From: Anaerolineae bacterium | GTDB taxonomy: Bacteria; Chloroflexota; Anaerolineae; B4-G1 | NCBI GenBank assembly: GCA_046760785.1 | Contig: JBHIET010000007.1 | Span: 736 to 64,735 of the forward strand | Length of the DNA: 64,000 nt | Reading direction: 5' to 3' | Notes under the pieces: generated by a model | Told to the model about the DNA's origin: nothing | The model's input: the letters and a program-made list of their open reading frames with translations, nothing else | Databases searched by the model: none | Program-made: the position numbers and the translations under genes | Part shown: in pieces, positions 28,379-63,100 of the stretch | Layout of the letters: each line of letters starts with the position of its first letter | How positions within the stretch are numbered: position 1 is the first letter of the stretch

Positions 28379-28395
28379 CGGGTACGAGGTCAACG

Positions 28396-29796: not shown

Positions 29797-29805
29797 GCAG
29801 AGGAG

Positions 29806-30837: not shown

Positions 30838-30955
30838 CATTCCATAAACTGGGGCGACCTGTGCCCAAACCGCCACACTCCAGTGAATATGTGTACTTTC
30901 GCAGCAAGGCGCGGCATCGAGCACAAAACTAAATCTGGAGTGAAAGGAGCGAAAT

Positions 30956-31729: not shown

Positions 31730-31767
31730 CCGTTACAGGCTGCATAGTGGTGGCAAGGGACTGCGTA

Positions 31768-43569: not shown

Positions 43570-44616
43570 ATGTCACGTGGAAAACGTGAGAGCCACTGGT
43601 TGGTCATACGCCGTTGCCTGGCCATCATCCGGCGGGCACAGCGCGGCCTGGCTAGCCGAGAGGAACTGATTCAGGCCGTACTGGCGCAGGAAGAGCCGGA
43701 GGCCTACGGAGAACTCCAGGGCAAGGCCCTGTATCGCCGCCTGGAGAACGACCTGCGGCGCATTCGGGACAACTTGATGGTGGACTTGTACTTCGACCGG
43801 CAGGCGGGCGGCTATGTGATCAAAGACACCTGGCTGCCCTTGCTGGACCTGCCGGACGAGGACCTGGCGACCATCGCCTGGCTGGAGGAGACGTTTGGCC
43901 TGGACTCGCCGCAGCACGACGAGGTACACGCGCTGCTGGGGCGGCTGAGGCTCTACCTGGGAACCGAGCGATTGGCCGCTCTGGAGCGCTGTCGTACGGC
44001 GCTGACAGTAGACCTGAGACAGCGGGACGAGGACGAGATTCCATCTGCGGTGTGGGATGGGCTGACGAAGGCAATGCTGGAGCGGCGGCAGGTCGAGTTG
44101 CTCTACCTCTCGCCCCAGTACGAGAATGGAAGACCCCGACGCCACGTGGTGGATCCCTACGACTACTACTTTGACACGACGCGCGGCCATTACTACCTGC
44201 GCGCCTACTGCCGCCGCGCCAAAGGCCCTGACGGCCTGGATGAGCCGCGCTGCTACATCACCTACCGCGTGGGGCGTATCTTGGAATTGACCGTGTTGCC
44301 TCAGAAGCTATCACCGCTGCCTCCACCCTCTCCCCGTTACGCTGTGGTGTACGAACTGGCTCCGCAGGTCGCCCGCCTGGGCGTCACCCACCACCTCAGG
44401 ATCGAGATCGAAGACATCGAGCGGCGAGACGATGGGAGTGCCGTCGTGCGCGGGACGACAGACAGCGTCTTCTGGGCCATCCAGGCCCTGATGCACTATC
44501 GGCATCACTGCCGCGTGCTGGGGGGGCCAGAGATGCTGCGGGAGATGCGAGCCACGGTACAAAAGATGGCTGAAATGTATGCACAGGAAAAGCGATCCCC
44601 ACGGATGTGGGGGTGA
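43570..44616 (+). CDS. WYL-domain transcriptional regulator, CRISPR-associated by position
   Basis: N-terminal HTH-like region and a WYL core (RRHVVDPYDYYFDTTRGHYYLRAYC...YRVGRI). It lies directly upstream of cas10d. From memory, a WYL regulator (sll7009) accompanies the Synechocystis type I-D locus. Confidence 0.8.
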   Translation: MSRGKRESHWLVIRRCLAIIRRAQRGLASREELIQAVLAQEEPEAYGELQGKALYRRLENDLRRIRDNLMVDLYFDRQAGGYVIKDTWLPLLDLPDEDLATIAWLEETFGLDSPQHDEVHALLGRLRLYLGTERLAALERCRTALTVDLRQRDEDEIPSAVWDGLTKAMLERRQVELLYLSPQYENGRPRRHVVDPYDYYFDTTRGHYYLRAYCRRAKGPDGLDEPRCYITYRVGRILELTVLPQKLSPLPPPSPRYAVVYELAPQVARLGVTHHLRIEIEDIERRDDGSAVVRGTTDSVFWAIQALMHYRHHCRVLGGPEMLREMRATVQKMAEMYAQEKRSPRMWG

Positions 44617-44672
44617 GGGTGTGGTAGAATGATATTGTGCAATGAGGGTGTGAGTCAAGAAGGGAGGAGTTG

Positions 44673-47600
44673 ATGCCCACAGTCTCTGAGATCGAACAAG
44701 TCCTGAATGAATACGTTGAAAAGTACATTCCGGTGATGTTGCGCCAGGGATACCACCTGGTGCTGGTCAAGGGCGGGCCGGACTATCCCCACCTGCCGGA
44801 ACAATCCCACTTTGCTCACATCATCAACGGCGCGTTTGGCCTGACGCAACTGGTCAAGTTCCTGATCGAGCACAACGTGCGCGTCCCCGGGCTGGACGAA
44901 GAAACTTTCCGCAAGGCGCTGGCGCTTTTCACCGTTCACGAAGTACACAAGGATGCCGAGGTGGAGCTGCTGGGCGATTCCCAGTTCAGCATCCCCCTGG
45001 AACGGCTGCGGGAAGAGTACCAGCGCCTGGGACTGGACCAATTCGCCCCGGTGGACGAGTACCTGATGCGGGCGGCCAATGTCCACAAGCGTAGCAGCAA
45101 GCACGGCGATTTGCTGCTCAGCGATGATCCGAACGCTGCACAGCTATGGCTATGGGTGCGCATCGCCGACACCTTCGCCTCGGTCAAGACGCCGGAAGAG
45201 GCGAAGGCTTCGCTGGAGGGCTATCTGGCCGATCTGGGGCCGGCCTTCGCCCCCAAGAGTCCGCCGGGCAAGTATACACTCTATTACCACGAGATCAAGG
45301 ACGTGCGCGGTGTGCTGACCAACACCGTCCACCAGGCTGTCGCTCAACAGTTGGCGGGCGACCTGGGCTTTTTCCCGCTGCTCTACTTCGCCACGGGCAC
45401 GCTCTATCTGGGACCGGCTCAATTGGACGGTGACGCCGATGACGCGATCCCCGCCGTCGCCGAATGGGTGCTCCAATCGCTGACCCAGGGCGGTGGTGGG
45501 GACGCCATCCGCGACGGGCTGCGTCGCCAAAAGTTCGACTTTGAGCGCTACGTCTACGCCTTTGCCACAGTGAAAGACCTGCTCCAGGTCGTCCACGATG
45601 AAACGCTGACCGCCAAACCCGACGCACGGGTAGCCCTCAAGGAGATAGACGGCCTGGTCAGCAAGCGCCAGGAACTGAGCGCCGAGTGGCGGGACACGGT
45701 CGAGGAACGGTTTGGCATCCAACTGCTCGACCCCAAGGAGCACAAAACCTTCAACGAACTCTGGTCCCAGGTACGGCGCTACCTGCTCTATGTGGACACG
45801 CTGTTGCGCGACCTGAACCCGGCCGAGAACCGACTGGAGTGGTTCCTGCGTGTGTTTGCCATCCCGCAGCCTTATGCCGACAACCTGCGTCGGGAAGCCG
45901 ACATCTGGGCGAAAGGCGGGATCGGCAAGTACGTGCTGGTGATCGCCTACCACTTCCTGCGCGGCCCCGACTTTGCCGACCGCCCGGCCGAGGCCACGCC
46001 GCCGGAGCAGGTGCTGGAGCGGTTGCACCGCCGCGTGCTGGAGGCCTTTCGCCAGGTGGATACCCAGGCCGGACGGCAGGCCGCCGTGGCCGAGCTGGGG
46101 TTGCGCCAGGACCTGGAGGCGTACCTGGCCGAGCATCTGTACCTTTCCTTTGCCCCGGCCAGTCAACTGGCCGCTGACAGCCTGGCGGGCTATGTGTCGC
46201 CGAAGCGCAAGGGGCACACGGGCCAGGTGTGTTCCATCTGCAACCGGCGCAGCGAGTACGTGCAGTCCTTGCGGGCGGGCATCCTGGACGACTTTGGGCG
46301 GGTTTTTTCCAATCGGGTGCTCCCCGCCCGCGAAGCGCCCCAGGGCAACCGCCTCTGGTGCCCGGTCTGCCAGTTGGAGTTCATCTTGCGCAAGGTGATG
46401 GGCATGGGCCTGCCCTCCACTGCCCATTACAAGAACTCGCGCCGCATTTATCTCTATGTGTTGCCCACCTTCTCTTTCACCCTGGAGCACCTGCGCCTCT
46501 TCGAGCCGCTGCTGAAACCGTTCCACCGCGTGACCGGCTTGCCGGTGCGCGATTACGGCAAGGGCGATCCCGGCTTGCCGCGCTACTGGTTGGAGCATCG
46601 CGCCTTCGACCCGGATTGGGTGGAGGACTTGCAAGAGGTGTTGGAGCGCGAGGCGGACAAGATCGCCGGCTGGGGCGGACGGGGCTTTGTGGGCGAACGG
46701 GTCTCGCTGGGACGCATCACCGGCCAGCCGCACTACTACCTCATCACTTGGGAGAAAGCGGCCCGCGACACCGAACCCGACGACGCCCGCATCGCCACCC
46801 GCACCGAGGCCTGGTGCAAGGCGCTCTTCGCCGCGGCAGTCATCAGCGGGCTGACCAGTTGCAAGGTCTACGTCACCGAACGGCCTTACCTGCCGGTGGC
46901 CGACCCCGCCGAGTTGAGGGCTACCATCACCCTCGATGGTCCGCCCCCGGCGCTGCGGGGGCTGCTGGGCGGGCGCACCGACGAGGTCACGCTTTACGGG
47001 CGGGAAAAGGGAGAGCGCAGCGGCCTGGAGCGGGTGTTGGACCTGAGCGCGGCGCTGTGGGCGGTGACCGCCGACGTGCACGCACCCCAACGCAACACCA
47101 AAGACAAGCACATCTCCGGCCGGCTGGGGACGCTGAATACCTCGCCGCTGGCCGGGGCCACGTTCTACAAGGAGTATGGCCGCCTGAACGAGGGGCAATC
47201 GCCCTTTCCCACATTGACGACGGCCTGTGAGGTACTGCTGGAGGTTCAAGGAGGTGAACTGATGGACCTGGTAGAAAAGATCGCACAAAAGAGCCTGGAG
47301 ATTGCCCTGCCGCGAGGTGCATCCGGCCGGGGCAAGGCGCGGCGCTACGAACTGGTCTTCCGCGAGGCGGTCTCCGCCATGCGCCAGGCGCAAAAGATGA
47401 TCCCGGAGATGCGAGAGGCGGCCATCGGCGGGAGGCGCCCGTCGGCGCAGAGCATCGCCGAACTGAAGCGGTTGACGGCGGGCACGCTGCTCAAGGGGTT
47501 GGAGCGCCGCCAGGAGAGCAGGCGGGGCGAGATCTTTGTCCGCGCCTGGGGCGACCAACTGGGCCGGCTGGTAGGCGAGTTCGTGGACCTGCTGGTGGAC

Positions 47601-47762
47601 GAGCTCTACCTGGGCCGCGCTGGGGGCAGCTTCGCCCGCTTCCTGCGGCTGGAGAACAGCCTGGCCGATGGGATCTATTACTACACCGACCGGCACCTGG
47701 GAGAAGAGTGGGCAGCGTACAAGGCCGCCAGAAAGGAGAGCGGGGAGCAGACCAATGAGTGA
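44673..47762 (+). CDS. cas10d: Type I-D large subunit Cas10d (Csc3) with an N-terminal HD-like domain
   Basis: 1029 aa. Has H...H(E)xxHK motifs (SHFAHIING, FTVHEVHKD, RIADTF) and the Zn ribbon CSICN...CPVCQ. It lies in an operon with csc2/csc1/cas3'. A GGGAGGAG RBS precedes the ATG at 44673. Confidence 0.8.
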   Translation: MPTVSEIEQVLNEYVEKYIPVMLRQGYHLVLVKGGPDYPHLPEQSHFAHIINGAFGLTQLVKFLIEHNVRVPGLDEETFRKALALFTVHEVHKDAEVELLGDSQFSIPLERLREEYQRLGLDQFAPVDEYLMRAANVHKRSSKHGDLLLSDDPNAAQLWLWVRIADTFASVKTPEEAKASLEGYLADLGPAFAPKSPPGKYTLYYHEIKDVRGVLTNTVHQAVAQQLAGDLGFFPLLYFATGTLYLGPAQLDGDADDAIPAVAEWVLQSLTQGGGGDAIRDGLRRQKFDFERYVYAFATVKDLLQVVHDETLTAKPDARVALKEIDGLVSKRQELSAEWRDTVEERFGIQLLDPKEHKTFNELWSQVRRYLLYVDTLLRDLNPAENRLEWFLRVFAIPQPYADNLRREADIWAKGGIGKYVLVIAYHFLRGPDFADRPAEATPPEQVLERLHRRVLEAFRQVDTQAGRQAAVAELGLRQDLEAYLAEHLYLSFAPASQLAADSLAGYVSPKRKGHTGQVCSICNRRSEYVQSLRAGILDDFGRVFSNRVLPAREAPQGNRLWCPVCQLEFILRKVMGMGLPSTAHYKNSRRIYLYVLPTFSFTLEHLRLFEPLLKPFHRVTGLPVRDYGKGDPGLPRYWLEHRAFDPDWVEDLQEVLEREADKIAGWGGRGFVGERVSLGRITGQPHYYLITWEKAARDTEPDDARIATRTEAWCKALFAAAVISGLTSCKVYVTERPYLPVADPAELRATITLDGPPPALRGLLGGRTDEVTLYGREKGERSGLERVLDLSAALWAVTADVHAPQRNTKDKHISGRLGTLNTSPLAGATFYKEYGRLNEGQSPFPTLTTACEVLLEVQGGELMDLVEKIAQKSLEIALPRGASGRGKARRYELVFREAVSAMRQAQKMIPEMREAAIGGRRPSAQSIAELKRLTAGTLLKGLERRQESRRGEIFVRAWGDQLGRLVGEFVDLLVDELYLGRAGGSFARFLRLENSLADGIYYYTDRHLGEEWAAYKAARKESGEQTNE
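47262..47762 (+). CDS. cas11d: Candidate internally translated small subunit Cas11d (nested in the cas10d frame)
   Basis: A near-perfect internal SD, AAGGAGGTGA (47249-47258), lies just upstream of the in-frame ATG at 47262. The 166-aa helical product starts MDLVEKIAQKSLEIAL... Confidence 0.45.
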   Translation: MDLVEKIAQKSLEIALPRGASGRGKARRYELVFREAVSAMRQAQKMIPEMREAAIGGRRPSAQSIAELKRLTAGTLLKGLERRQESRRGEIFVRAWGDQLGRLVGEFVDLLVDELYLGRAGGSFARFLRLENSLADGIYYYTDRHLGEEWAAYKAARKESGEQTNE

Positions 47763-49968
47763 ATTCGACTTTGGACCAATCTCACGCACGGTGGACGCCT
47801 CAACCGGTCGAGGCGATGCCATCAACTTTGCCTCACTGCCGGTCCACGAAGCGCTGACGGCCCTGCTGGCGAGCAACAAGGCGAGCAACAACCGGGATGA
47901 ATTTGTCGCCTGGCTGTGGCACGACCTGTTCAAGCCGTTGTTCTGGTGGCAATGGAATGCACGTAAGAGAAAATTTGATTGGATCCACTATCCCAACAAT
48001 AGACCAAATGATCCACTAAATGTTGAGGCACACTGGTCAAGTGTGACAGGAATTCCATCCGGTCTGGTGGAAACGCATCACCTTCACAGTGGCCGCAAGT
48101 TTAGGTTTGGGGAAACGGAAACGATTAACAACGAGTTCGACCAGGTTGCCATAGGAAAGGATGCCCGTTTTGTCCAACTCTCCTTCCTGGTCGAACCTGC
48201 TACCCATACTGCCCTGCTCCGTGCCGTGATCGCCGACGCCTTTATGGAAGTCGTGACGAAAGCGGTTGCTGCATCCATCGGAACGGAACTGGCAACCAAG
48301 TCGCCTACCTTCAAACGAGTCCGCTATGTTTTTGATTTCGATCAGGTCGCGCTGTCTAGCCCGCCCACCAGTTCAGAGATTGCGTCTCTGGCGAACCAAT
48401 ACACTTTGGACGTCACTTCTGATGAACTGATCATCAAGCACTTGGTGCCCCTTGCCAAACCGGACCTGGACGGACGTCACGTTGAGGTTGTGCTTGATTT
48501 GACCGCCGAGCCACCGACTGCAGAGCGGTTTGGCCAGGGCATAATCTCGTTGGTGGAGTTGTTGACCGTTTACCAAGACAGTCGTACCATCCTAATGGGT
48601 ATCCCTCAGTTTCTGACGGTGGATGTTGGGCAACTGACGCAACAGGTGCAGAGTGCAACAGAGCAGCGGCTACAGGGCCTGGATATTCGGACAATGGCAA
48701 ACACGGTTGAGCTCAAGCGGCAGGGCACAACACAAGGTCGTGTGAACTGGGATGCTCTGCCACTGAACAAGCAAGGTCAGGAGGTTGATTTGCTGGCACA
48801 CGTGTTTGCCGAGCAGGTGGAAATCCGCCTGATCGACCGAGGCCGATTGCTCCAAAAGGTCAAAGCCTCCAAAGGGAAATCCTTCGAGGTTCGTTTCCTC
48901 AGCGAGATCGTGTCGCATCCCATTGCATTGCTTGCTGGCAAACCTCGTCACTGCCGTTTCTGCAACTCGGCGTTCGAGAGCAATCTTCCCCCAGCCGACG
49001 CAAAAGTAGGAGGCTATTTCACCGATATTGAGCACGTTGGCTTTGGCGGCGACATTTGCCCGATGTGCCGTGTTTATATACTCAACTCCCACAAGTCCCA
49101 TACCGAGGCCGAAAGAGCGCAAGGCATTACAGGGGACCGGAAGGGATATCGTGGGGCTTTTGCCATCGCTTCTCCTTCCTCCCATTTCACCTATGATGGG
49201 GAACAGTGTCAGCTCATCGAGCAACCTCCACTGGATATCGGCGGCCGCTTCGCTGCACCCTTGCAACGGGCCACAGTCACCCTGCAGGAATATGCCCTGT
49301 TCAATATGCTTTCTCGTCGGCTCATCGCCCAGATTTGGACCCGGCTGGATGCTGCTAACGAGATGCAACCACTGCCCCTGCCATATGTGGGGGCCATTCT
49401 GTTAACCCAAAACAAAGCGGCTCAAATTCGGACACTGTTCGACTGTCTGGAGGTGCTCTTTGACAAAGTGGAACTTGTGGCATATCCGTTCAAGGTAACC
49501 GTACAGCCGGCTGCAGAACTGGCTTTCGAGATGGCGGTGAACGACCTGAAACAGCATCACACCAAACATACCTATCTGAAGACCAGCCCCATCATTGTCC
49601 CTGTACATCCAGACAGCAAGTTCACCCTCCTGGTGGACAACGGACTTCAGTTGGAGGTGAACTGCAAGTTCTTTGAGGATCGAAGGCGAGTGAACGAGCT
49701 TTTGGAGGACATCAAAGGTCAGAAGCGACAACACAATTGGCTTCTGGCCGTGCTTCAAGGCATAGACCCGGTGACAGCAACGGCGGAAACTTTCTATGAT
49801 TATGACGTGCCACTCCGGCAGGCCGAAGAGGCGTTTTGGAATACACGCTTGAATGCCGAGTCTCTTGCCCAGCAATGGCAACGATATGAAAAAGTGTGCG
49901 ACGAGGTTGGCCGCATTGTGGCCAGGTATCCGATGTTGATTGAGTTCTTTGCCAAACCAGGGAGGTAA
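47755..49968 (+). CDS. Second large-subunit-like protein: N-terminal HD motif + Zn ribbon (Cas10d-like / type IV-C Csf1-like)
   Basis: 737 aa. The ATG overlaps the cas10d stop (ATGAGTGA). Contains PVHEAL...AWLWHDLFKP (H...HD..K) and CRFCN-x41-CPMCR, which parallels CSICN-x44-CPVCQ of Cas10d. GC is lower than in the flanking genes. Confidence 0.6.
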   Translation: MSEFDFGPISRTVDASTGRGDAINFASLPVHEALTALLASNKASNNRDEFVAWLWHDLFKPLFWWQWNARKRKFDWIHYPNNRPNDPLNVEAHWSSVTGIPSGLVETHHLHSGRKFRFGETETINNEFDQVAIGKDARFVQLSFLVEPATHTALLRAVIADAFMEVVTKAVAASIGTELATKSPTFKRVRYVFDFDQVALSSPPTSSEIASLANQYTLDVTSDELIIKHLVPLAKPDLDGRHVEVVLDLTAEPPTAERFGQGIISLVELLTVYQDSRTILMGIPQFLTVDVGQLTQQVQSATEQRLQGLDIRTMANTVELKRQGTTQGRVNWDALPLNKQGQEVDLLAHVFAEQVEIRLIDRGRLLQKVKASKGKSFEVRFLSEIVSHPIALLAGKPRHCRFCNSAFESNLPPADAKVGGYFTDIEHVGFGGDICPMCRVYILNSHKSHTEAERAQGITGDRKGYRGAFAIASPSSHFTYDGEQCQLIEQPPLDIGGRFAAPLQRATVTLQEYALFNMLSRRLIAQIWTRLDAANEMQPLPLPYVGAILLTQNKAAQIRTLFDCLEVLFDKVELVAYPFKVTVQPAAELAFEMAVNDLKQHHTKHTYLKTSPIIVPVHPDSKFTLLVDNGLQLEVNCKFFEDRRRVNELLEDIKGQKRQHNWLLAVLQGIDPVTATAETFYDYDVPLRQAEEAFWNTRLNAESLAQQWQRYEKVCDEVGRIVARYPMLIEFFAKPGR

Positions 49969-49972
49969 TTCA

Positions 49973-50452
49973 ATGGCTGAAAATCAGAAATCATCGCGGG
50001 AACAGCGTCTGCGCCGGGCTTACGAAGCCATCGAGCAGATGCAGTTGGGCGAGCGCGAAGCGGAAGTCAAACTGGCGCTCAAGGCGTTGCTGATAGCGCG
50101 AGGGTGCATTCGTCTGCCTGAGACACCGCAAGCCCGCCGCAAGACACTTCAGCGGCTCTATCCGGCACTCGTCAAGTATTCGAGAGCCTCGGAAGCGGAA
50201 ACACTGGGTGCTCTGGTAAACGACGTGATCGGTGCTCTGTCGCCCGATTGGGATTTCTCCCCCCATCGCGCTCTCGGAGACCCTGTGGAAGACATCTACC
50301 AGGAGAGCGAAACGGCCAAACGGGCCAGAGAGCTCCTTAAGGAAGAGACCGTCCCTCTGGTCATCTTGATGAAAAAGATCTACCAAAGCTTCATCGAACC
50401 CGAAGAAGCGACTGAGGAAGAACAGGCAGAAGAGGAGGCCAGCCATGCATAA
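49973..50452 (+). CDS. Small all-helical protein, Cas11-like small subunit candidate
   Basis: 159 aa, preceded by a GGGAGG RBS. It is predicted helical by composition, with an acidic tail. Its position between the large subunit and a Cas7-like gene supports the call. Confidence 0.5.
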   Translation: MAENQKSSREQRLRRAYEAIEQMQLGEREAEVKLALKALLIARGCIRLPETPQARRKTLQRLYPALVKYSRASEAETLGALVNDVIGALSPDWDFSPHRALGDPVEDIYQESETAKRARELLKEETVPLVILMKKIYQSFIEPEEATEEEQAEEEASHA

Positions 50453-51437
50453 CCTGAAACTGTACGCCTTGTATCAGGCCAAGCAACCCATCATTCACAC
50501 TGAGGAGACCATCGGCAACATCTCCAAGATCAAAAAGATGCGCGTCATTCACGATGGCAAGCCTGTACCGGTGCCGACCCTCTCCGGCAACAGCTTCCGC
50601 GGCCAGTTCCGCGACATCCTGGCGGACCAGATGTTCGCCATTCTGACCAACGGTGGTGCCAGCCGTGTCAAACTCCCCCCTGACCATTACGGCGTTATCT
50701 ACAGCGGCGGCGTGATGAAGGAGGGCTCCAAGATGGGGGAGCAGATGAAGGCGATGGCTGACGCCATTCCTATGCTGCGACTGATGGGCTCGGCCTTTGG
50801 CAACGTGATGCTTCCATCAAAGTTGGCCGTGACCCACATCATTCCCTACGCGGTGGAAACGCAAGCCGTTGTCCAATCTACGGTGAATGCGCTGCCGGAC
50901 GAAGGGCGTGCCTTGTTGCCGGCGGAGCCACCCAGTCGCGGTGATTTGCTGTTCAACGATGGCCCACTGACCCGCAAGGATGACACCAAAGACCTGACCA
51001 AACAGCGCTACGCCGAGACAGAAGCAGACCTGGGCCAGGACGAAGAACGCACCCGCCGCCAGATGATCTACTACGTCGAGTGTATTCCTGCCGGAACGTT
51101 CCTGCTCCAGGAGATGTACAGCAAATATCCCCTGGACGATCTGGAACTGGGCTGCTTCTTCGATGGCCTGCTCACTTTTCTCCAGGAACCCAGCCTGGGT
51201 GGACGCAGCGCAGCAGGTTATGGGCAGGTACTGGCAAGGTACTGGGTACAATTGGAAGGCAAAGACCCGTTCGAGTTGACATCGGAGCAGGCGATCACAC
51301 TTCCCCAGCCGGTGCAGGATGCTATTGAGCAATACCGAAAGTGCGTGGAGAAACAGCAACAAGCTTTTCTCGGCGCGTTGAAAGCCAAAACCATTTCTGA
51401 GGAGGCGCAAGATGACGCCCCCGACTCCACGGAGTAG
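50445..51437 (+). CDS. RAMP protein, Cas7-like (Csf2/Csm3-like backbone subunit candidate)
   Basis: 330 aa. Contains TLSGNSFRGQFRD (compare the RAMP motif SGxSxRGxxR), LMGSAFGN, and the G-rich loop SLGGRSAAGYGQV. There is an 8-nt overlap with the previous gene. Confidence 0.65.
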   Translation: MHNLKLYALYQAKQPIIHTEETIGNISKIKKMRVIHDGKPVPVPTLSGNSFRGQFRDILADQMFAILTNGGASRVKLPPDHYGVIYSGGVMKEGSKMGEQMKAMADAIPMLRLMGSAFGNVMLPSKLAVTHIIPYAVETQAVVQSTVNALPDEGRALLPAEPPSRGDLLFNDGPLTRKDDTKDLTKQRYAETEADLGQDEERTRRQMIYYVECIPAGTFLLQEMYSKYPLDDLELGCFFDGLLTFLQEPSLGGRSAAGYGQVLARYWVQLEGKDPFELTSEQAITLPQPVQDAIEQYRKCVEKQQQAFLGALKAKTISEEAQDDAPDSTE

Positions 51438-52506
51438 GAGTAAAAGAGCTTTTCCTCTGAACGAGGAAGCCTGGCAACTGCTCAATGATACTGCCAGGGC
51501 AGTATCTTACGACCTGAGCGACGATACCGTCTACGAGCTGCGTCTGCGCCTGCAAACGCCCGGCATCTTTGCCCTGTACAAGGCCGACATCCCGGCTCCG
51601 GGACTGCCCATGCTGGATGGCTTCTTAAAGTTCGTGGCCTTTCAACAAGCGATGGACCAGGTAATGCGGAAAAGGCCAGACTTGACCAATGACTTGCTGT
51701 GGCAATGGAACCTGGCGCTTCGTGACACCCGGTACTGGATAGACTTTTGTATCCCCATTCGCCAAGAGACACTCAATAGCGGCATTGTGCTCTATGACTG
51801 TTCGGTCGGTTTGCCGGTGACTCCAGAAGATGACGTTCTCTATCCGACGGGCGCCTTTTTTGCCTGCGGGGGTAACCTGACCACCTACCCATCTGAAGAA
51901 AAAGGGCCGGCCGACCAGATTGCCTTGCGTCGCCGCTCTGTAGAACCAGTTTATCGACCCTTTGAATTGACCGGTAAATTGAACCCCCAGAGTGGTTCCA
52001 GAAAGGCGTTGGACAACCGTATCTATTACGCTCTCACCCAGGAATACACCTTCTACTTCCGAGGGGACAAAGATGGCGTCAGGCAATTATTGCACTTTGC
52101 TCTTCAGCAAGGGGTCGGCATCGGGAAAAAGACTTCGTTGGGGTATGGGCGCATTGCCCAGCTTGAGATTCAACCTGCCAACCAGTGCGTTACTCTCGGA
52201 CACGACATCGGTTTGCCTGGTGTGCCCCGGATAGCCTTGCTCAAGAACGTTCCTTATCAGGAACTCCAACGCCGAAGCATCCGGCAGAGTGGTGAGTTTG
52301 GGCTTGTTCAGGTAAAAGAAGGGAATCAGTGGAAGGACATCCTTACGCAGAATGAACGGGACCAAAACGAGAGGTTGTTCGGTGCCCGCGAGTTCAGCCT
52401 GGCCTCGCCCATCGAGACCTTTGATTGTTACTATCCGCCCTATTGGCGACGTGAAGGTCGCACGCAGGTGCTGAGATACGGCACTCTGCTCATACCACGC
52501 TCGTAA
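51412..52506 (+). CDS. RAMP protein, Cas5-like (Csf3-like candidate)
   Basis: 364 aa. Contains PMLDGFLKFVAF near the N-terminus and the G-rich loop GVGIGKKTSLGYGRI. A GAGGAGG RBS lies inside the upstream gene. Confidence 0.55.
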   Translation: MTPPTPRSRSKRAFPLNEEAWQLLNDTARAVSYDLSDDTVYELRLRLQTPGIFALYKADIPAPGLPMLDGFLKFVAFQQAMDQVMRKRPDLTNDLLWQWNLALRDTRYWIDFCIPIRQETLNSGIVLYDCSVGLPVTPEDDVLYPTGAFFACGGNLTTYPSEEKGPADQIALRRRSVEPVYRPFELTGKLNPQSGSRKALDNRIYYALTQEYTFYFRGDKDGVRQLLHFALQQGVGIGKKTSLGYGRIAQLEIQPANQCVTLGHDIGLPGVPRIALLKNVPYQELQRRSIRQSGEFGLVQVKEGNQWKDILTQNERDQNERLFGAREFSLASPIETFDCYYPPYWRREGRTQVLRYGTLLIPRS

Positions 52507-52520
52507 AGAAGGAGGTAAAA

Positions 52521-53525
52521 ATGACTCTGAAGACTTTACAACCCTACGCCAGCTATTTCGTTCCCGAGATCCCGCGCACACCCACCAATCGCTACGCCAG
52601 CATCATCCTGCTGCGGGAGACCAAGTCCTACGCCATCTTCACCACCGAGGGCGGCGAGCAGCAGGACGTGGAAGAGACCCCCGCCGGCCCGGCCCACACC
52701 GAGCCGACCACCCGCCTGGTGATGTTCAAGCGCAAGCAGGTGGCCCCGGAGCGACGCACCGGCAAGGCATTGCTGCGGCAATACGGTGTCTTTCCCTATG
52801 CCATCCAGGACGGACGGGTGGTCTATGGCGAAGAGGCGCTTCAGGCAAGGAAGCACTACGAGGACTGCTACCTCACCGAGGGTCTCTGCACCCACTGCCC
52901 CGACTGCCTGATCTACGGCTACGCCGCCATCGAGGCCGAAGGCGCCCGCAAAGCTCGCTTGATGACCGACACCTGCTTCACCGTCCGCCCCTACGAGATC
53001 ATCCAGAAGCAGGTCAAGTTCAACGTCATTGACGAGGCCCGGCACACCTCCGGCACCATCACCGAGTACGACTACACCACGCCGGGCGTCTTTCTCCCCG
53101 CCGTGGAGACGACGGTGGACCTGACTGCCGACGAGTTCGCCTACGTGCTGGGCAACGTCCTGCGCACCACCCGCTACGGCAAGGAGAGCACCCGCCAGGG
53201 CTTTGTGCGCAACCACATCCTGGCCATCGCCTTCTCCGACGTGGAACTCTTTGCCAACCTGGAGTTCACCCAGGCCCTCTACGACGCCCTGGTTGGCGCC
53301 GGCAAGGACCTGGCCGCCGAGGGCCTCTCGCTGGCCGACTTCCAACAGCACGCCGAGGCCGTCATTCAGCGGTTGACGGAGCAGTTGACCGGGCGGCTCA
53401 CCCTGGTCACCGGAGAGGAACTGGCGGGCATCCTGGAGGACGTGCGCGCCCTGAACCAGGACGAGGAGCGTCTGGCCGGGTTCCTACGAGACCTGAACAC
53501 GGCTTCGGCGTCGTTTGTGGTGTGA
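52521..53525 (+). CDS. csc2: Type I-D Cas7 (Csc2)
   Basis: 334 aa. Contains the LCTHCPDCLIYGYA Cys cluster and a Csc2-like body (FNVIDEARHTSGTITEYD, TRYGKESTRQGFVRN). AAGGAGG RBS. Confidence 0.8.
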   Translation: MTLKTLQPYASYFVPEIPRTPTNRYASIILLRETKSYAIFTTEGGEQQDVEETPAGPAHTEPTTRLVMFKRKQVAPERRTGKALLRQYGVFPYAIQDGRVVYGEEALQARKHYEDCYLTEGLCTHCPDCLIYGYAAIEAEGARKARLMTDTCFTVRPYEIIQKQVKFNVIDEARHTSGTITEYDYTTPGVFLPAVETTVDLTADEFAYVLGNVLRTTRYGKESTRQGFVRNHILAIAFSDVELFANLEFTQALYDALVGAGKDLAAEGLSLADFQQHAEAVIQRLTEQLTGRLTLVTGEELAGILEDVRALNQDEERLAGFLRDLNTASASFVV

Positions 53526-53659
53526 GGTCGCACGGCGGTTGAAACCGCATGCTGCGGGGTGCGAAACCGCCTGCGGCGGTTGGGGGGGCTGCGCCGGCAG
53601 GCTTCGCCGCCCCCAGCCCGCGAATTCATTCGCCGGGCAGAAAGAGAAGGAGCATCAGT

Positions 53660-54406
53660 ATGCACATCTACCGCATCGCCATCGAGCTGCTCGACTACAT
53701 CTTTTATGCCACCACCGAACGGGGCAAGGTCTACGAGACAGGGGCCTTCATCCACAACTATGCCCTGGCCTACGCCCTGGGCCTGGGGCGGGGAGAGACC
53801 TACACCTACGCCAACCTGAAACAGAAACCGCACTACCTGGAGGAATTGACGCCGCTGAACGGTCGCCTCTACCTCACCCCCGCTGCGCCCCGGCAAGTGG
53901 CCCACCGTCTGGTGCAGTGGAACACCATCCGCGAGGGGTATGCCTTTCCGGGCAAGGAACCGTCGGTGGGCTACCCCGACTGGGGCTTTGCCCGCATGCT
54001 GCGGCCTGGCTCTCGTTTTCTGTTCTACCTGCTTGCGCCCGACCCTGCCGCCTTGCCCGATGCACCTGCGCTCCGTGATCTGACAGCCGGACGGCCGATA
54101 CGGATACGGCTGGGCAAGTTCCCCGGCAAGGCCCGCTTGCAGGCGCAGCAGGCGGACAGGGTAGTGACGCGAGAGGGGCCTTTCCAGACGACGGCCATGC
54201 TCAACTGGCGCGACCTGGAGACCGACCCCCAGGTGTGCGACGTGGTCGCCGCCAGCCTGCCCACCCGCCTGCTCAGTCGCGCCCACTTTGCGGAAGGACC
54301 GTCCTACGAGGCTCATTTTGGCGATGACCGGGTTCGGCTACCAGTGCGGATGCGCTTCCTGGCCCGGCCGCCGGAAACACGTCGTCGCGCAAGGAGTCGC
54401 CGATGA
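53660..54406 (+). CDS. csc1: Type I-D Cas5 (Csc1)
   Basis: 248 aa, starting MHIYRIAIELLDYIFYATTERGKVYETGAFIHNYALAYALGL (Csc1 signature as I recall it). AGAAGGAG RBS. Confidence 0.75.
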   Translation: MHIYRIAIELLDYIFYATTERGKVYETGAFIHNYALAYALGLGRGETYTYANLKQKPHYLEELTPLNGRLYLTPAAPRQVAHRLVQWNTIREGYAFPGKEPSVGYPDWGFARMLRPGSRFLFYLLAPDPAALPDAPALRDLTAGRPIRIRLGKFPGKARLQAQQADRVVTREGPFQTTAMLNWRDLETDPQVCDVVAASLPTRLLSRAHFAEGPSYEAHFGDDRVRLPVRMRFLARPPETRRRARSRR

Positions 54407-56511
54407 ACCCGTTGACGGTGGAGGTCGGCCCGCTGGCCTACGCCCAAACCGACGAGCCGTGGATCGGCGACTACCGGCCCTACCTCTACCAGAGCCGCGT
54501 ATACCGGGCCGTGCAGGAAGCGTTGACGGGGCGAGAGACGCGTTGTCTCTTCCTGGTCACGCCCACCGGCAGCGGCAAGACGCTGGCCAGCTACGCCTAC
54601 ACCATCAACCACGGCACACCGGCCTTTGGCGTCTACCCCACCAACGAACTGATCCGCGACCAGGAGCGCTCGCTCAAGGACTGGCTGGACCCCGGCGACG
54701 ATTACCGGTTGCTGCGCATTGACAGCCGGCAGCTCGACCAGTGGCAGGATGGCCTCGACCTGCCGCAACACGCTCAGACCTTTGAGCGGCTGATGCACTG
54801 GCGGCCGACCATTCTCACCAACCCCGACATCCTGTTCTATACTTTCTTCGGGCTATACCGGGGACCGCGAGGGTTGAGCCAACGGCTTTTTGCACTGCTG
54901 GGGCAGTACCGGCTGTTCATCTTTGACGAATTCCACCTCTACAACGTCAAGCAGATGGCCGATGTGGCCTTTTTTGCCGGGACGCTGCACGCCATCAACC
55001 CAGGCTACGGGCGCGTCTTCCTCTTCGCCTCGGCCACGCCCGCATCACCGGCCCTGCCCTGGCTGCGCGACCGCTTGCACCTGCCGGTGGAGGTGGTTGA
55101 AGGAGAACCGTCGGACGCGCCGGAGGCCCGCACCATCGCCCATCCGCTGCAACTGACCCTGCTGCCCGCCGACCTGCGCCGCTGGAAAGGGGTGGAGACA
55201 CTGCTGGAGTACCTGCCGGCGCTGGAGCCATTCTTCCAAGAGCACCCCCAGGCCCGCCTGGTGACCATCCTCGACTCGGTGGCCGGGGCCATCGCCACCG
55301 CCCAGGCCCTGCGCCAGCGGTTCCCCGACAAAGCAGTGGGCGAAGTGCACGGCTTCAGTTCCGACCAGGAGCGAGAGGAGGCCTTGCGCCGACCCTTCAC
55401 CGTCGGCACCTCCACCATCGAGGTGGGCATTGACTTCAAGGACGAGGCGGAAAAGGACGTGCTGATCTTTGAGGCGCGCACGGCCAGCCAGTTCATCCAG
55501 CGCTTCGGACGGCTGGCACGACACGAGAAGGCCCTCGCCATCCCCAACCGCGTCATCGCCCTGGTGCCGGAGTACGTCTACCACTTTTTGGACGACAAAC
55601 TGAGCAACGGGCAGACCCTCTCACGCTACGATTTGTACTCGCTGGTCGAGGAGGGCTACACCAAACCGGAGGATTTCGAGCGCTACCTGCGCACCCACGC
55701 CGCCGCCGAGTTCCAGGCCGCCCGCAAGAACGCCCAGTGGCCCTTCCAGCCCGACGACCGGCCGCGCATCGAACAGGGACTGGCGGAGACCATCACCGCG
55801 CTGACGGGCAAGACCGATGGGCAAGCGTGGTCGCTGTACCGTCGTTACCAGGACGAGGAGCGCATCCTGGCCCCCTTGCTCACCTTTCGCGGCAGCGGGT
55901 TCGAAGCCGCCATCCTGGACGAGCGCGGAACAGACGCCGGCTTTCCGGCCAAACGCTACAACCTGATGTTCCTCCTGCGGCGCGGCATCTTCACCGAACT
56001 GGATGAGGAAGAATACCTGGCGCGGCTGGAAGCACTGGCCGACCACTGGCCGGAAGACGCCGCTCGCGAGCGGCGCTACGGCAAGCGCATCGGGCGCAGG
56101 CCGGAGGACCTGTTGGGCGTTTGCGGATTCTTCAGGCTGACCGGCCTGCTGGACAAGGGCCGCAAGGTCTGGTTTGAGATGAGCGAAGATGCTGTCTGGG
56201 GACGCAAGGCACGGGTGGCGGTGATTGACGGGTTGGATATAGTGACTGACCCAGACATGCCCTTGAGGCGGCTCAACCGCCACCTGCGCAAAAAACAAGT
56301 CGTCGCCTGGTTCGTGGACCGTCATCCGGCCTCGATCAAATTGGGCCGCGCCCTGCCACCTCTGTTCGAGATACACGAACTGCGCCTCCGGCGGCCCGGC
56401 GGTGGCCTCAGCCCCACCGTGTGGAGCATTGCCTTCAACCAGGACGCCTTTTTTGTGGATAGCCTGGGATGGCACAGAGAAAGCCGAGAAGATCGGGCGA
56501 TCATCCTGTGA
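54403..56511 (+). CDS. cas3: Cas3' helicase (no HD domain)
   Basis: Contains Walker A TPTGSGKT, DEFH box IFDEFH and motif VI QRFGRLAR. ATGA overlap with csc1. Confidence 0.9.
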   Translation: MNPLTVEVGPLAYAQTDEPWIGDYRPYLYQSRVYRAVQEALTGRETRCLFLVTPTGSGKTLASYAYTINHGTPAFGVYPTNELIRDQERSLKDWLDPGDDYRLLRIDSRQLDQWQDGLDLPQHAQTFERLMHWRPTILTNPDILFYTFFGLYRGPRGLSQRLFALLGQYRLFIFDEFHLYNVKQMADVAFFAGTLHAINPGYGRVFLFASATPASPALPWLRDRLHLPVEVVEGEPSDAPEARTIAHPLQLTLLPADLRRWKGVETLLEYLPALEPFFQEHPQARLVTILDSVAGAIATAQALRQRFPDKAVGEVHGFSSDQEREEALRRPFTVGTSTIEVGIDFKDEAEKDVLIFEARTASQFIQRFGRLARHEKALAIPNRVIALVPEYVYHFLDDKLSNGQTLSRYDLYSLVEEGYTKPEDFERYLRTHAAAEFQAARKNAQWPFQPDDRPRIEQGLAETITALTGKTDGQAWSLYRRYQDEERILAPLLTFRGSGFEAAILDERGTDAGFPAKRYNLMFLLRRGIFTELDEEEYLARLEALADHWPEDAARERRYGKRIGRRPEDLLGVCGFFRLTGLLDKGRKVWFEMSEDAVWGRKARVAVIDGLDIVTDPDMPLRRLNRHLRKKQVVAWFVDRHPASIKLGRALPPLFEIHELRLRRPGGGLSPTVWSIAFNQDAFFVDSLGWHRESREDRAIIL

Positions 56512-56536: not shown

Positions 56537-57409
56537 ATGAGCGCGAACGACGATATGCTCTACTCTATCGTCCTCATCCTCACCCCCACGCGCGCGTCGA
56601 GCGTCCGCGCCACGATGGGGTATCAGGCCCACGCTGCCTTCCTGAAGACGGTGCGCGAATCGGACCCCGCCCTGGCCGAGGTGCTGCACATGCCCGATAT
56701 GCCTTGCCGGCCGTTTACCGTGTCGCCCTTGCGAGGAACGCCGCGGCCTCAGAATGGGCGTATCCGCCTTTCGCCGGAAGAGACCTACTGGCTGCGCTTT
56801 ACCATCCTTTACCCGCCCATTTTCGAGCAGTTCATGCGCCGCTTTCTGCGGGGGGAAGGACGCCCCGTCGTCCGGCTGGGTCACGCCGTGCTGCTCATCA
56901 AAGAGATTCTCGCCACACCCGGAAGCCATCCCTGGACCGGATACACCTCGTGGGGAGAGATCGCGTCCGGCGCTCGGCCAGAGGCCGAGATCACGCTCGA
57001 CTTTGTCTCTCCCACTGCTTTTGGGTTTGGGCAAAAGGATTGGGGCAAGAAGGTGGTCGTGTTGCCAGAACCGGACGCGGTTTTCGGCAGCCTGGCCCGC
57101 TCGTGGAACAACCTGGCCCCGCCACCACTGCAAGTGGAGCGGGATGCGTTGAAGATCTATGTGGAGGAACACGTCGTCGTCAAGCGCATCAGTGATCTGC
57201 GCACACGGATGTTGCACTTCCGTAAGTCGCCCCAGGTGGGCTTCGTGGGACAGGTGACCTACGGCCTGATGGCGGAGAACGAGGCTGCCCGCTGTCAACT
57301 CAGCGCGCTGGCCGATTTTGCCTTCTACGCCGGCGTGGGGATGAAGACGACGATGGGGATGGGGCAAACCCGCCGGTGTGCTGACCAATATGGTCTACGA
57401 CGTCAGTGA
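56537..57409 (+). CDS. cas6: Cas6 crRNA endoribonuclease
   Basis: 290 aa with the C-terminal G-rich loop GVGMKTTMGMGQ. Start at MSANDDMLYSIVLIL after GGAGAGGGA. Confidence 0.8.
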   Translation: MSANDDMLYSIVLILTPTRASSVRATMGYQAHAAFLKTVRESDPALAEVLHMPDMPCRPFTVSPLRGTPRPQNGRIRLSPEETYWLRFTILYPPIFEQFMRRFLRGEGRPVVRLGHAVLLIKEILATPGSHPWTGYTSWGEIASGARPEAEITLDFVSPTAFGFGQKDWGKKVVVLPEPDAVFGSLARSWNNLAPPPLQVERDALKIYVEEHVVVKRISDLRTRMLHFRKSPQVGFVGQVTYGLMAENEAARCQLSALADFAFYAGVGMKTTMGMGQTRRCADQYGLRRQ

Positions 57410-57436: not shown

Positions 57437-57706
57437 TTGCGTGACCAGATCCGCGGAGCAGCCGGTTCGACTATGCACAACGTCGCCGAAGGATTCGATG
57501 CTGGCTCGGACGCCGAATTCATCCGCTTTTTGAAGTATGCCCGCCGTTCGGCCAGCGAGGTGCAATCGCAGCTCTACATCGCCCTCGACCGGCGCTACGT
57601 GACCCAGGATCAGTTCCAGTGCATCTACGACCAGGCCACCTCGGTCAAGAAGCCGATCAACGCCTTCATCGGTTACCTGAAAAAGTCCCGTCGGACATCC
57701 AAATGA
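57437..57706 (+). pseudogene. N-terminally truncated four-helix-bundle protein (23S rRNA intervening-sequence / Avd-like family)
   Basis: LRDQIRGAAGSTMHNVAEGF...EFIRFLKYARRSASEVQSQLYIA matches the central and C-terminal helices of the family. About 30 N-terminal residues are missing. Only a TTG start is available, and the ORF is in the same frame as cas6, nine codons past its TGA stop. Confidence 0.6.
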
Positions 57707-60135: not shown

Positions 60136-63100
60136 GCTCAACAAAACAGAATCCCGACTGAGGGATTGAAACAGCGTGCTTGGCGGCTTTCGCCCCAGGC
60201 GCTTCGGGCTCAACAAAACAGAATCCCGACTGAGGGATTGAAACTCTGCAACTCGCGATGCGACATACAAACTTGACCTCGCTCAACAAAACAGAATCCC
60301 GACTGAGGGATTGAAACCGGGGACTATGCTGTGCTTCGATGTGCAGCCCCCGAGCTCAACAAAACAGAATCCCGACTGAGGGATTGAAACGAGAGCAATC
60401 AACTCTTATCTAAGGAATCCTGGGAAGCTCAACAAAACAGAATCCCGACTGAGGGATTGAAACCGCGAATCACAGGCAAAAACGAATATCAGATTATCGG
60501 CTCAACAAAACAGAATCCCGACTGAGGGATTGAAACAGTTCCACTTCTCCCGTGATATCTGATTCCTCCAGCAGCTCAACAAAACAGAATCCCGACTGAG
60601 GGATTGAAACAATGTAAATCTTATTATGGAGGAATCTGTGCCGGAAGGCTCAACAAAACAGAATCCCGACTGAGGGATTGAAACCACCGTGGTAGGCCTC
60701 TCTTTCGAGAGCGAGAGCAGCTCAACAAAACAGAATCCCGACTGAGGGATTGAAACTGCCCGAATTCGAGATATCGATTACCTCGAATTCCGCTCAACAA
60801 AACAGAATCCCGACTGAGGGATTGAAACGGGGAAATTGAATCTCGAATCCTATCAGATGGAGAAGCTCAACAAAACAGAATCCCGACTGAGGGATTGAAA
60901 CTGGTTGCGGGAAGGGGAGAGATTGAGGGCTGATTGGGCTCAACAAAACAGAATCCCGACTGAGGGATTGAAACATAGGCTATCCCCTTAGCCAGGAATC
61001 CGAAGAGCGTAGCTCAACAAAACAGAATCCCGACTGAGGGATTGAAACTGATTGGGCTCGGCAGTGCTTACCTTAGTTTTCAGGCTCAACAAAACAGAAT
61101 CCCGACTGAGGGATTGAAACAATTTTCCTTCCCCACCCGCTTGATCAAAATCAAAGCTCAACAAAACAGAATCCCGACTGAGGGATTGAAACTTGGGACT
61201 GGGCTACCTCCAAAGTGCGCGCGAAAGGCTCAACAAAACAGAATCCCGACTGAGGGATTGAAACCTGAGTTGGATGAATACGGAGAAAACAGGATAGACA
61301 GCTCAACAAAACAGAATCCCGACTGAGGGATTGAAACCAAATAAAACCAATCGGAATCTCTGATTACCCCCCAGCTCAACAAAACAGAATCCCGACTGAG
61401 GGATTGAAACAAGTCCCCCTCTCCCCGCAACAAAAATTGATAACAGCTCAACAAAACAGAATCCCGACTGAGGGATTGAAACTTATTGGTAGTCAAAATG
61501 AAACGCCGCACCCCCCACAGCTCAACAAAACAGAATCCCGACTGAGGGATTGAAACGCCGCCAGAATAATATCTATCCGGCGTCGTGGGCCATGCTCAAC
61601 AAAACAGAATCCCGACTGAGGGATTGAAACAATAATGCACCTTGAGCGCATAGAAGAAATCGACATAGCTCAACAAAACAGAATCCCGACTGAGGGATTG
61701 AAACGAGGGCTGATTGGTCGGGAATTGCGGACGGTGAACGGGCTCAACAAAACAGAATCCCGACTGAGGGATTGAAACTCGAAGATAGCCTCCGGCGGCC
61801 GATCCGGCCAATGGGCTCAACAAAACAGAATCCCGACTGAGGGATTGAAACTAGCCTTTTGATATTCATTTCATCCTATCCTATTAGCTCAACAAAACAG
61901 AATCCCGACTGAGGGATTGAAACTGGAATAATATCATCAAGAGGAGGAAAAATGACCAGGCTCAACAAAACAGAATCCCGACTGAGGGATTGAAACAATA
62001 CGGAAAAGAGGATAGAAACATAATGGCTACTAGCTCAACAAAACAGAATCCCGACTGAGGGATTGAAACCTCTCCCACAACCCTGCCTTATGGGTTGCCT
62101 ATCAGGCTCAACAAAACAGAATCCCGACTGAGGGATTGAAACGAAACCGCTGATTACGCCGAATCGCTCTATCCCAGCTCAACAAAACAGAATCCCGACT
62201 GAGGGATTGAAACCCGCCCTTGTCCAGTCGGGCCTTCCCTTAGCCATTAGCTCAACAAAACAGAATCCCGACTGAGGGATTGAAACGCAGCAACGTCTTC
62301 CCTCAGATATTCATCCTGCCAAGCTCAACAAAACAGAATCCCGACTGAGGGATTGAAACCGAGCGAAAGCCCCTCTATATCTCATCTCCCACAATGCTCA
62401 ACAAAACAGAATCCCGACTGAGGGATTGAAACGCCGTTTATCCGCCGAGGCCGTCATATCCGCTGCGGCTCAACAAAACAGAATCCCGACTGAGGGATTG
62501 AAACCGTACAACGCCGTGATGCGAGCGCTGGAGCGGCTGAAGCTCAACAAAACAGAATCCCGACTGAGGGATTGAAACGGTAATGCCCGGCAATTATTGC
62601 CCGGCAATACCAGGCTCAACAAAACAGAATCCCGACTGAGGGATTGAAACAAGGCTATCGTCATTTTCATCGCTTGCTCCCGCCTGGCTCAACAAAACAG
62701 AATCCCGACTGAGGGATTGAAACAATCCTGCCGCAGAGCGATACGAGAAGCGGGCAGAGGCTCAACAAAACAGAATCCCGACTGAGGGATTGAAACGGCG
62801 TGCTGGGCAGCCTTCGCGCCAGGCGCTTCAGGCTCAACAAAACAGAATCCCGACTGAGGGATTGAAACTCATATCGCCACGGGGGCAGCTGCCGTAATGG
62901 AGCAGCTCAACAAAACAGAATCCCGACTGAGGGATTGAAACCAAAGGGCTGTTGAAAGCAGGCCTGCTCGATTCGTAGCTCAACAAAACAGAATCCCGAC
63001 TGAGGGATTGAAACCGGCGATCCTGAACTTGCATTGCATCTCGACAACTTGCTCAACAAAACAGAATCCCGACTGAGGGATTGAAACAGCTTCTATACGA

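Follow-up and report, generated by a model that had tools for sequence, protein, structure and literature searches.

Between the type I-D genes cas10d and csc2 of an Anaerolineae bacterium lies a cassette of four genes (positions 47755-52506) that, judging by the sequences of their products, form a complete type IV-C effector module and do not belong to the I-D system. The cassette was found in a stretch of 64,000 nucleotides (nt) of contig JBHIET010000007.1 (assembly GCA_046760785.1), which is called the window in this text; the genes, junctions and array of the I-D locus described are on the forward strand, and related loci are designated by numbers beginning with L. In our reading, a complete IV-C effector was inserted long ago into an I-D operon associated with a WYL-domain regulator, is mobile, and is proposed to share the CRISPR RNAs (crRNAs) of the I-D system. 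We estimate the probability of this reading at about 75%. Type IV-C itself is known; what is new is its arrangement inside an I-D operon.

The first gene of the cassette (47755..49968) encodes a Cas10-like large subunit of 737 amino acids (aa), which has an HD domain at its N-terminus and a zinc finger of the form CxxC...CxxC. The following genes encode an all-helical Cas11-like small subunit of 159 aa (49973..50452), Csf2, which is the Cas7 protein of type IV (50445..51437), and Csf3, the type IV Cas5 (51412..52506). Csf2 matched the PADLOC model typeIV_Cas7 (Csf2_0_IV) over its full length (residues 3-316, E = 7.8e-47). Its PDB matches were the Csf2 protein of type IV-B (9e-11) and the chain 'Cas7c' (2.3e-9) of the solved IV-C complex, which is deposited as 11fs, 11hc and 11hd with chains named 'Cas10IVc', 'Cas7c' and 'Cas5c'. 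Csf3 was recognized by the PADLOC model typeIV_Cas5 (Csf3_0_IV; 1.9e-18) and by TIGR03116 (9.5e-8), and Pfam Csf3 is present in its homologues. The top PDB match of the Csf3 family profile was chain 11fs_D ('Cas5c'), which is marginal at an E value of 0.019.

The large subunit had no match in Pfam or NCBIfam. It could have been a diverged copy of the neighbouring Cas10d, but this was ruled out, as BLASTP found no similarity. A profile of 74 large-subunit homologues yielded a single PDB match, 11fs_A ('Cas10IVc', 3.5e-8), and the alignment covers two stretches, namely the HD motif (WLWHDLFKP, corresponding to LIHDYYKP) and the CxxC...CPxC zinc finger. The best Foldseek matches of its AlphaFold2 (AF2) model (predicted local distance difference test, pLDDT, 86; predicted template modelling score, pTM, 0.91) were Cmr2/Cas10 proteins (6.8e-4), and the PADLOC model for IV-C Cas10 gave an E value of 0.048. 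In the 74 sequences, residues H31, H56, D57, K60, H78 and C400 are invariant, and H108, H109, C403, C435 and C438 are kept in at least 90%. No GGD[DE] (GGDD cyclase) motif was found in the 737-aa protein. For the small subunit (AF2 pLDDT 86), the sole fold match with a template modelling (TM) score above 0.5 was the type IV-B Cas11 protein 7jhy_g (TM 0.52-0.57, probability 0.84, E 0.67), and in relatives the gene is always located between those of the large subunit and Csf2. Neither DinG, the signature of type IV-A, nor the CysH-like protein of type IV-B is encoded between 43570 and 59731, where all genes belong to I-D, IV-C or adaptation. Homologues of the cassette are mostly from Chloroflexota, Thermoflexales included.

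The original prediction had set the block apart by its base composition, and its hand counts of G+C (75/100, 50/100, 30/60 and 39/60) were all reproduced exactly. Over whole genes, the G+C content (GC) is 0.548 in the cassette, 0.647 in cas10d and 0.634 from csc2 to cas2. At third codon positions (GC3) the values are 0.60-0.72 for the cassette, 0.83 for cas10d and 0.72-0.88 for the genes from csc2 to cas2, the latter being also the range of the I-D genes overall, and at codon positions 1 and 2 the cassette is slightly lower, too (0.50-0.54 vs 0.50-0.61). The cassette is thus lower in GC, as had been claimed, but by about 9-10 points and not by 15-25, which is the difference in GC3; the estimate was too large because the hand counts were small samples. 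In the GC profile, the level of 0.62-0.69 gives way to one of 0.51-0.60 between approximately 47800 and 52500 and is afterwards regained. Windows of the same size across positions 1-60000 without overlap with the cassette have a mean GC of 0.621 (standard deviation 0.024). Only 2.6% of these are as low as the cassette, and the lowest starts at 28301, in a restriction-modification (R-M) island. A composition model with two boundaries, placed at ~47900 and ~52560, gained 59 log-likelihood units over a single composition. Synonymous codon usage also differs between the cassette and the I-D genes (chi2 233.7, 41 degrees of freedom, p 8e-29; control of I-D against I-D genes, 60.4), so that the difference proved significant in the analysis of GC, GC3 and codon usage that had been suggested as a check.

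The island just mentioned (28300-32000, GC 0.51) is located just upstream of ftsK, and nowhere else in the window ahead of the CRISPR array is the GC below that of the cassette. It contains genes for a protein with an Mrr-type restriction endonuclease domain (28396-29796) and an N6/N4 DNA methylase (29806-30837) and an open reading frame (ORF) of 257 aa. The array itself (60136-64000) has a GC of 0.48, again below that of the cassette.

At every locus where both were measured, the cassette has a lower GC3 than the adjacent cas genes. The values for cassette and adjacent cas genes are 0.54-0.70 and 0.73-0.84 in L001, 0.57-0.71 and 0.79-0.90 in L011, 0.57-0.67 and 0.70-0.83 in L003, 0.38-0.45 and 0.84-0.88 in L005, and 0.35-0.42 and 0.70-0.72 in L023. 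A dip in GC3 is present in all relatives examined except the Poribacteria locus L014. Modules of types I-D and III-C that are nested in related I-D operons (L076, L078 and L079 were measured) show the same tendency, with a GC3 of 0.61-0.72 vs 0.75-0.88 for the cas genes of the host operon. Because the offset recurs at every locus measured, the composition break is a mark of separate origin and not of recent arrival. Cassettes would circulate among genomes of lower GC, with only partial amelioration once they are in high-GC hosts. The GC3 of the cassette is 0.35-0.45 in L005, L013 and L023, which are distant relatives, and the intermediate values in the window fit partial amelioration, possibly together with an ongoing exchange with a pool of lower GC.

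The separate origin of the block is also suggested by related operons in which its place is empty or otherwise filled. Nine loci were fetched purely by Cas10d similarity of 65-93%, and in six of them a second effector (I-D, I-B or III-C) is nested. In L076, L079 and L082, the slot between cas10d and csc2 is occupied by a second, distantly related I-D set (Cas3d-Cas10d-Cas7d-Cas5d, here called I-D'), and in L080 by a type I-B set (Cas8b-Cas7b-Cas5b-261 aa-Cas3). A type III-C or III-C-like set is found one junction further, between csc2 and csc1, in L078 and L085. The remaining three loci, L081, L083 and L084, have no nested module, and cas10d is directly followed by csc2; the two genes also adjoin each other in L011, L078 and L085. 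It had been asked whether orthologous I-D loci universally carry the block, and this is not so. Alignment with a relative lacking the cassette, which had also been suggested, was made with L076, the nearest relative by Cas10d (93% identical): the match to the window (91.5%) stops at 47704 and resumes at 52400 (89.8%). The block is therefore a module that originated separately and was inserted into the I-D operon, and the original prediction was right in this respect, as the block encodes type IV proteins and its slot is empty or differently filled in relatives.

The resumed match in L076 begins within csf3. Its 3' end (52400..52506 in the window) is kept just upstream of csc2 in L076 (11716-11823) and L079 (20060-20212) as a non-coding remnant, which comprises the last ~35 codons and is conserved at the peptide level (...YYPPYWRREGRTQVLRYGTLLIPRS*). 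Because this remnant is kept upstream of csc2, the IV-C cassette was ancestral in the slot between cas10d and csc2. In the lineages of L076 and L079, the I-D' module then took its place. A possible empty slot was also seen in the source sample of the window, a hydrothermal-vent metagenome whose runs include X1 and X2: one contig of low depth from X2 (5x vs ~24x) joins 47692 to 52569 and skips 4876 nt. It may stem from an I-D locus with nothing in the slot, co-resident in this vent community. A lone contig with no more than 36 nt on one side, it was not used as evidence.

The order cas10d, cassette, csc2 is shared by at least ten loci, namely the window, L001/L002/L006/L029, L007, L026, L032, L033, L036 and L037. 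Between the window and L001, the synonymous divergence (dS) is 0.9-1.1 for the cassette genes (2.4 for the small subunit) and 0.6-1.6 for the flanking cas genes. All four cassette genes have a ratio of nonsynonymous to synonymous divergence (dN/dS) of 0.10-0.12, which indicates that cassette and flanks co-diverged under purifying selection. Because of the shared slot, the dS values matching those of the flanks and the csf3 remnants, the insertion is old in this lineage and not recent at this site. A recent arrival, as the low GC seemed to imply, does not agree with relatives that have the same slot and with cassette and flanks that are equally diverged.

In other I-D operons, IV-C cassettes occupy different places. 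They are found between cas3' and cas6 in L011 and L039, between cas6 and cas4 in L030 and L046, between cas3' and cas10d in L043, L044, L048 and L049, and between csc1 and cas3' in L016, L045, L056 and L071, so that at least five different junctions are used when that between cas10d and csc2 is included. Neighbour joining of the large-subunit sequences gave a tree with intermixed slots, even within the clade that is at least 65% identical to the window. The cassette is also a mosaic: relatives of the small subunit are 93-97% identical, vs 78% for the best relative of the large subunit, a mismatch that reflects recombination within the cassette. The contigs with these small-subunit relatives carry large subunits that are only ~75% identical. 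Marsh metagenomes contain contigs that are 95-99% identical to the cassette, while matches to the region from csc2 through cas6 are mostly below 90%; at a threshold of 95%, the only full-length contigs from the marsh runs lie within 48172-52281. Relatives on phage or plasmid records were searched for in IMG/VR and PLSDB and none were found, which speaks against these elements as carriers. With several slots, replacement in some relatives and near-identical copies elsewhere, the cassette is mobile, and its exchange most likely takes place by recombination between I-D loci.

The borders of the cassette could be read directly from the sequence. At the 5' junction (47755..47762, ATGAGTGA), the ATG of the large subunit overlaps the TGA of cas10d by 8 nt, so the first cassette gene indeed starts inside the cas10d stop; the same overlap is found in L001 and L032. 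The claimed internal overlaps of 8 nt (small subunit and Csf2) and 26 nt (Csf2 and Csf3) are also correct, and the large and small subunit genes are probably separated by a gap of 4 nt (TAA ttca ATG at 49973), as in homologues. At the 3' junction (52507..52520), a spacer of 14 nt with a ribosome-binding site (AGGAGG) precedes the csc2 ATG at 52521. The genes do not overlap there, and the translational coupling that had been proposed for both sides is therefore not supported. Consensus matches for a separate cassette promoter or terminator were no more frequent than expected by chance. Because its junctions are so tight, the cassette is predicted to be expressed only as part of the I-D operon, which has the same orientation.

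The original prediction had further considered a recombination junction inside the gene of the 737-aa protein, at ~47930. This idea has to be dropped, as the N-terminus is conserved in the family and homology begins at the ATG. Within the first 60 residues, G7, P8, I9, R11, H31, W53, W55, H56, D57 and K60 are family-invariant. In L011, where the cassette adjoins cas3' and not cas10d, nucleotide homology to the window still begins at 47762. The GC3 peak at codons 31-60 (0.87 in the window) is shared by L001 (0.83), L007 (0.80) and L011 (0.80), and it is because these codons are GC-rich that the compositional left edge appears near 47900. The structural junction is thus the start codon of the large subunit. 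No recombination motif, terminal repeat or repeat-like sequence conserved across slots was detected at the cassette borders, and the array repeat has no matches outside the array.

The cassette has no cas6, no cas1, cas2 or cas4, and no array of its own, and because of this we propose that it shares the crRNAs of the I-D system. The IV-C proteins would assemble on crRNAs that are cut by the I-D Cas6 from the adjacent array. They would form a second interference complex, with the HD domain of the large subunit as its nuclease, beside the I-D Cascade with Cas10d and Cas3', and one spacer memory would arm two different effectors. Such a role as a second effector on I-D crRNAs is what the gene content suggests. 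At some loci, the IV-C module is the only effector (L003/L004, L042, L005, which also has a helicase, L050/L051, L062 and L023). Of these, L003/L004 and L005 retain cas6-cas4-cas1-cas2 of the I-D type, and the others retain part of this set. The Cas6 protein of L003 is 70% identical to that of the window. The array of L003 consists of more than 45 repeats, which are much like the repeat of the window and have the ending ATTGAAAC. This ending is also found in the array seen in L005, with about 9 repeats.

Cassettes also occur outside such loci. L013 (Oscillochloris trichoides DG6, GL501404.1), from a cultured organism, and L014-L024 (Poribacteria) are solo four-gene cassettes with large subunits 33-36% identical to that of the window. 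Relatives of the window's cas genes are mostly absent within 10 kb, and L017 has weak matches to cas3, cas1 and cas2. In the distant loci L005 (14897-17804), L016 and L056, a gene for a Cas3'-like helicase that is 26-27% identical to the Cas3' of the window lies downstream of csf3; in L005 an insertion sequence with a DDE_3 transposase is located between the two.

Other explanations of the block have to be weighed against an old and mobile IV-C insertion. A recent horizontal insertion, with the GC break marking a newly arrived block that has not yet adapted, would account for the sharp change in GC and codon usage, for the 95-99% identical copies in marsh metagenomes, where the I-D genes are far more diverged, and for the lack of a cassette next to the most similar Cas10d. 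However, the latter relative keeps the csf3 remnant and therefore lost the cassette instead of never having had it. At least ten loci share the slot, and in them cassettes and flanks have diverged to the same extent (dS ~1). The junctions are tightly evolved, and a cassette GC3 far above that of the distant relatives implies a long residence in a high-GC background, so we consider a recent arrival unlikely. That the composition is intrinsic, due to amino-acid content, expression or codon selection, and the block native to the I-D lineage could be argued from a GC3 dip that persists over deep divergence and in every context, and from the slightly lower GC at codon positions 1 and 2. This is very improbable in view of relatives with an empty slot or with other modules in it, of five cassette junctions and additional contexts outside I-D operons, of unrelated nested modules (I-D', III-C) with the same GC3 offset, and of cassette proteins that are of type IV and not of I-D.

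Alternatively, the block might not be a working second effector at all, but a selfish hitch-hiker, a decoy that soaks up I-D crRNAs or a decaying relic. For type IV-B complexes, which bind heterogeneous RNAs, a role as a sponge has been proposed (PMC8175902), and the cassette spreads between loci. In a decoy or relic, the HD and zinc-finger residues would hardly be invariant or conserved in at least 90% of the 74 sequences, nor would dN/dS be ~0.1 for all four genes. Together with loci where IV-C is the sole effector beside cas6, adaptation genes and arrays, such as L003, this makes the explanation improbable, although less so than an intrinsic composition. That the contig is chimeric, with a type IV locus wrongly assembled into an I-D locus, has a negligible probability. 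Contigs of the source runs do break near both borders, where unitigs end and the depth rises. However, single unitigs without mismatch cover both junctions (47631-52744 in X1, 47631-52604 in X2), and because they come from two independent runs of the source, the cassette block is not an assembly chimera. The same arrangement is present in independent assemblies from JGI, NCBI, ENA and Logan.

Several points weigh against an old IV-C insertion that shares I-D crRNAs. The NCBIfam scores of Csf2 (TIGR03115, 8e-14; 51.6 bits, cut-off 130) and Csf3 are under the curated cut-offs, the solved IV-C proteins are only remotely similar (two stretches of Cas10IVc, an E value of 0.019 for Cas5c), and the small subunit had no sequence match. 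What points to the use of I-D crRNAs is gene content, and no RNA run was found for the source vent metagenome. Finally, a GC3 gap that remains after a dS of ~1 is only roughly compatible with simple amelioration, and ongoing exchange or selection may contribute.

The genes around the cassette appear to constitute an intact type I-D system. A gene for a regulator with WYL and WCX domains (43570..44616; Pfam WYL 6.6e-8, WCX 4.1e-8) lies upstream of the operon. Such a gene also precedes cas10d in L076, L078-L081, L083 and L085 and is split in L084. The large subunit gene cas10d (csc3; 44670..47762) was identified with TIGR03174 (6e-46; 157 bits, cut-off 60), csc2 (Cas7d; 52521..53525) with Pfam Csc2 (1.8e-78) and TIGR03157 (2.1e-61; 207.8 bits, cut-off 38), and csc1 (Cas5d; 53660..54406) with TIGR03159 (1.5e-31; 109.6 bits, cut-off 41.4). 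The start of csc1 was set at the ATG at 53660, and homology to relatives begins at 53659. These genes are followed by the I-D helicase gene cas3' (54403..56511; TIGR03158, 5.4e-55; 186.9 bits, cut-off 69.1) and by cas6 (56546..57409, start approximate; Pfam CRISPR_Cas6 2.7e-19, Cas6_N 1.3e-13). The ORFs of cas4 (57619-58335), cas1 (58335-59432) and cas2 (59432-59731) have orthologues in L001 that carry Pfam Cas4, Cas1 and Cas2. In the CRISPR array (60136..63961), which runs off the end of the window, a 37-nt repeat with ATTGAAAC as its end occurs at least 53 times.

The sequence of HD motif II in the host Cas10d is VHEVHK, with HE in place of HD (44930-44950, residues ~88-95). The HE variant is present in 103 of the 120 close Cas10d homologues, whereas HD is found in I-D Cas10d proteins at a greater distance, among them the nested I-D' copies. 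A need of all loci with the HE variant for a nested nuclease module was ruled out by the plain loci L081, L083 and L084. In L084 (19622-20942) and L081 (18075-18845), small genes for a '23S rRNA intervening sequence protein' (PF05635) are found among or fused to the adaptation genes, and csc2 of L081 is split into two ORFs. The spacer between csc2 and csc1 (53526-53659, 134 nt) is GC-rich, with several hairpins and a GGTTGAAAC stretch; a structured RNA was considered and rejected, since the folding z score of -1.5 is not significant. Nucleotide alignments of L001, L011, L076 and L078 to the window break at this spacer, and run X1 has an odd back-joint from 53638 to 53534. At the same junction, genes for a nucleotidyltransferase (NTase) and a HEPN protein are found in L079, and genes for a RAMP protein and an AAA ATPase in L082.

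Type IV-C is defined by a Cas10-like large subunit with an HD domain together with Cas11, Csf2 and Csf3, in the absence of DinG and CysH (PMC8175902, PMC7038947). Reviews and the 2025 classification treat it as a rare, deep-branching type IV subtype with a nuclease, which in that classification is experimentally uncharacterised (PMC12669027). The cassette resembles it in its four-gene make-up with a small subunit that is Cas11-like, its HD domain and zinc finger without a GGDD motif, the lack of DinG, CysH, adaptation genes and an own array, the lack of relatives on the plasmid and phage records searched, and its Chloroflexota relatives including Thermoflexales. The reference locus is a four-gene block of a Thermoflexia bacterium (D6793_05715-D6793_05700; PMC7434947). 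In addition to the remote similarity to the solved proteins, the loci described here differ from IV-C as described in the literature searched in that the module is nested in an I-D operon, uses multiple slots and forms IV-C-only loci with an adaptation set and large arrays. Typical IV-C loci have no adaptation modules, and those with adaptation genes are called 'atypical' (PMC12538437). Archaeal IV-C has been described as loosely associated with type I systems (PMC7038947).

The proposed dependence on a neighbour's array has parallels. Type III modules without cas6 or adaptation genes are second effectors that use the crRNAs of co-resident type I systems, and the III-C sets of L078 and L085 are nested like the cassette; here, however, the guest is of type IV, lies inside the host operon instead of at a separate locus and is predicted to be co-transcribed. 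In the cross-talk of type IV-A with I-E and I-F systems, repeats are shared and spacers acquired in trans, and the type I partner supplies Cas6-compatible repeats and adaptation (PMC7038947; Benz 2024 as cited in PMC12669027). IV-A is plasmid-borne and has its own array and Cas6, a DinG helicase and no nuclease, whereas the present module is chromosomal, embedded in its partner's operon and equipped with a predicted HD nuclease. Compared with type I-D, the complement of cas10d, csc2, csc1, cas3', cas6, cas4, cas1 and cas2, the WYL regulator and the repeat ending in ATTGAAAC are all intact, but foreign effector modules interrupt the effector gene block, and the HD motif of Cas10d is HE. I-D effector genes are known to be shuffled between lineages, and a review of I-D covers only shuffled gene order (PMC10212523). 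In the literature searched, we found no account of IV-C or other effectors nested between I-D operon genes, of slot polymorphism for nested effectors or of IV-C-only adaptive loci derived from I-D.

Taken further, this mainly Chloroflexota lineage of I-D operons could be a docking platform for interchangeable effector cassettes that are swapped and share one memory, an idea to which we give even odds. The slot between cas10d and csc2 would accept IV-C, a second I-D or I-B, and that between csc2 and csc1 would accept III-C, all of them supplied by a single Cas6, adaptation module and array. Recombination would swap cassettes in and out and leave scars such as the csf3 remnant, and a IV-C guest could eventually take over the locus, giving rise to IV-C-only loci with full adaptation modules. 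If this is true, effector exchange within a single operon would be a regular mode of CRISPR-Cas evolution, and type IV-C would gain a defined natural source of crRNAs. Judging by these loci, the guide RNAs of IV-C most likely come from the Cas6 and array of I-D, and IV-C appears able to serve as the sole effector of an adaptive locus. The loci are compact natural operons and as such suited to reconstitution, and the wider pattern of effector-cassette exchange merits a systematic survey. The nesting of effectors, a pattern undescribed in the literature searched, suggests a way for CRISPR-Cas systems to vary their means of interference on the basis of one common immune memory.

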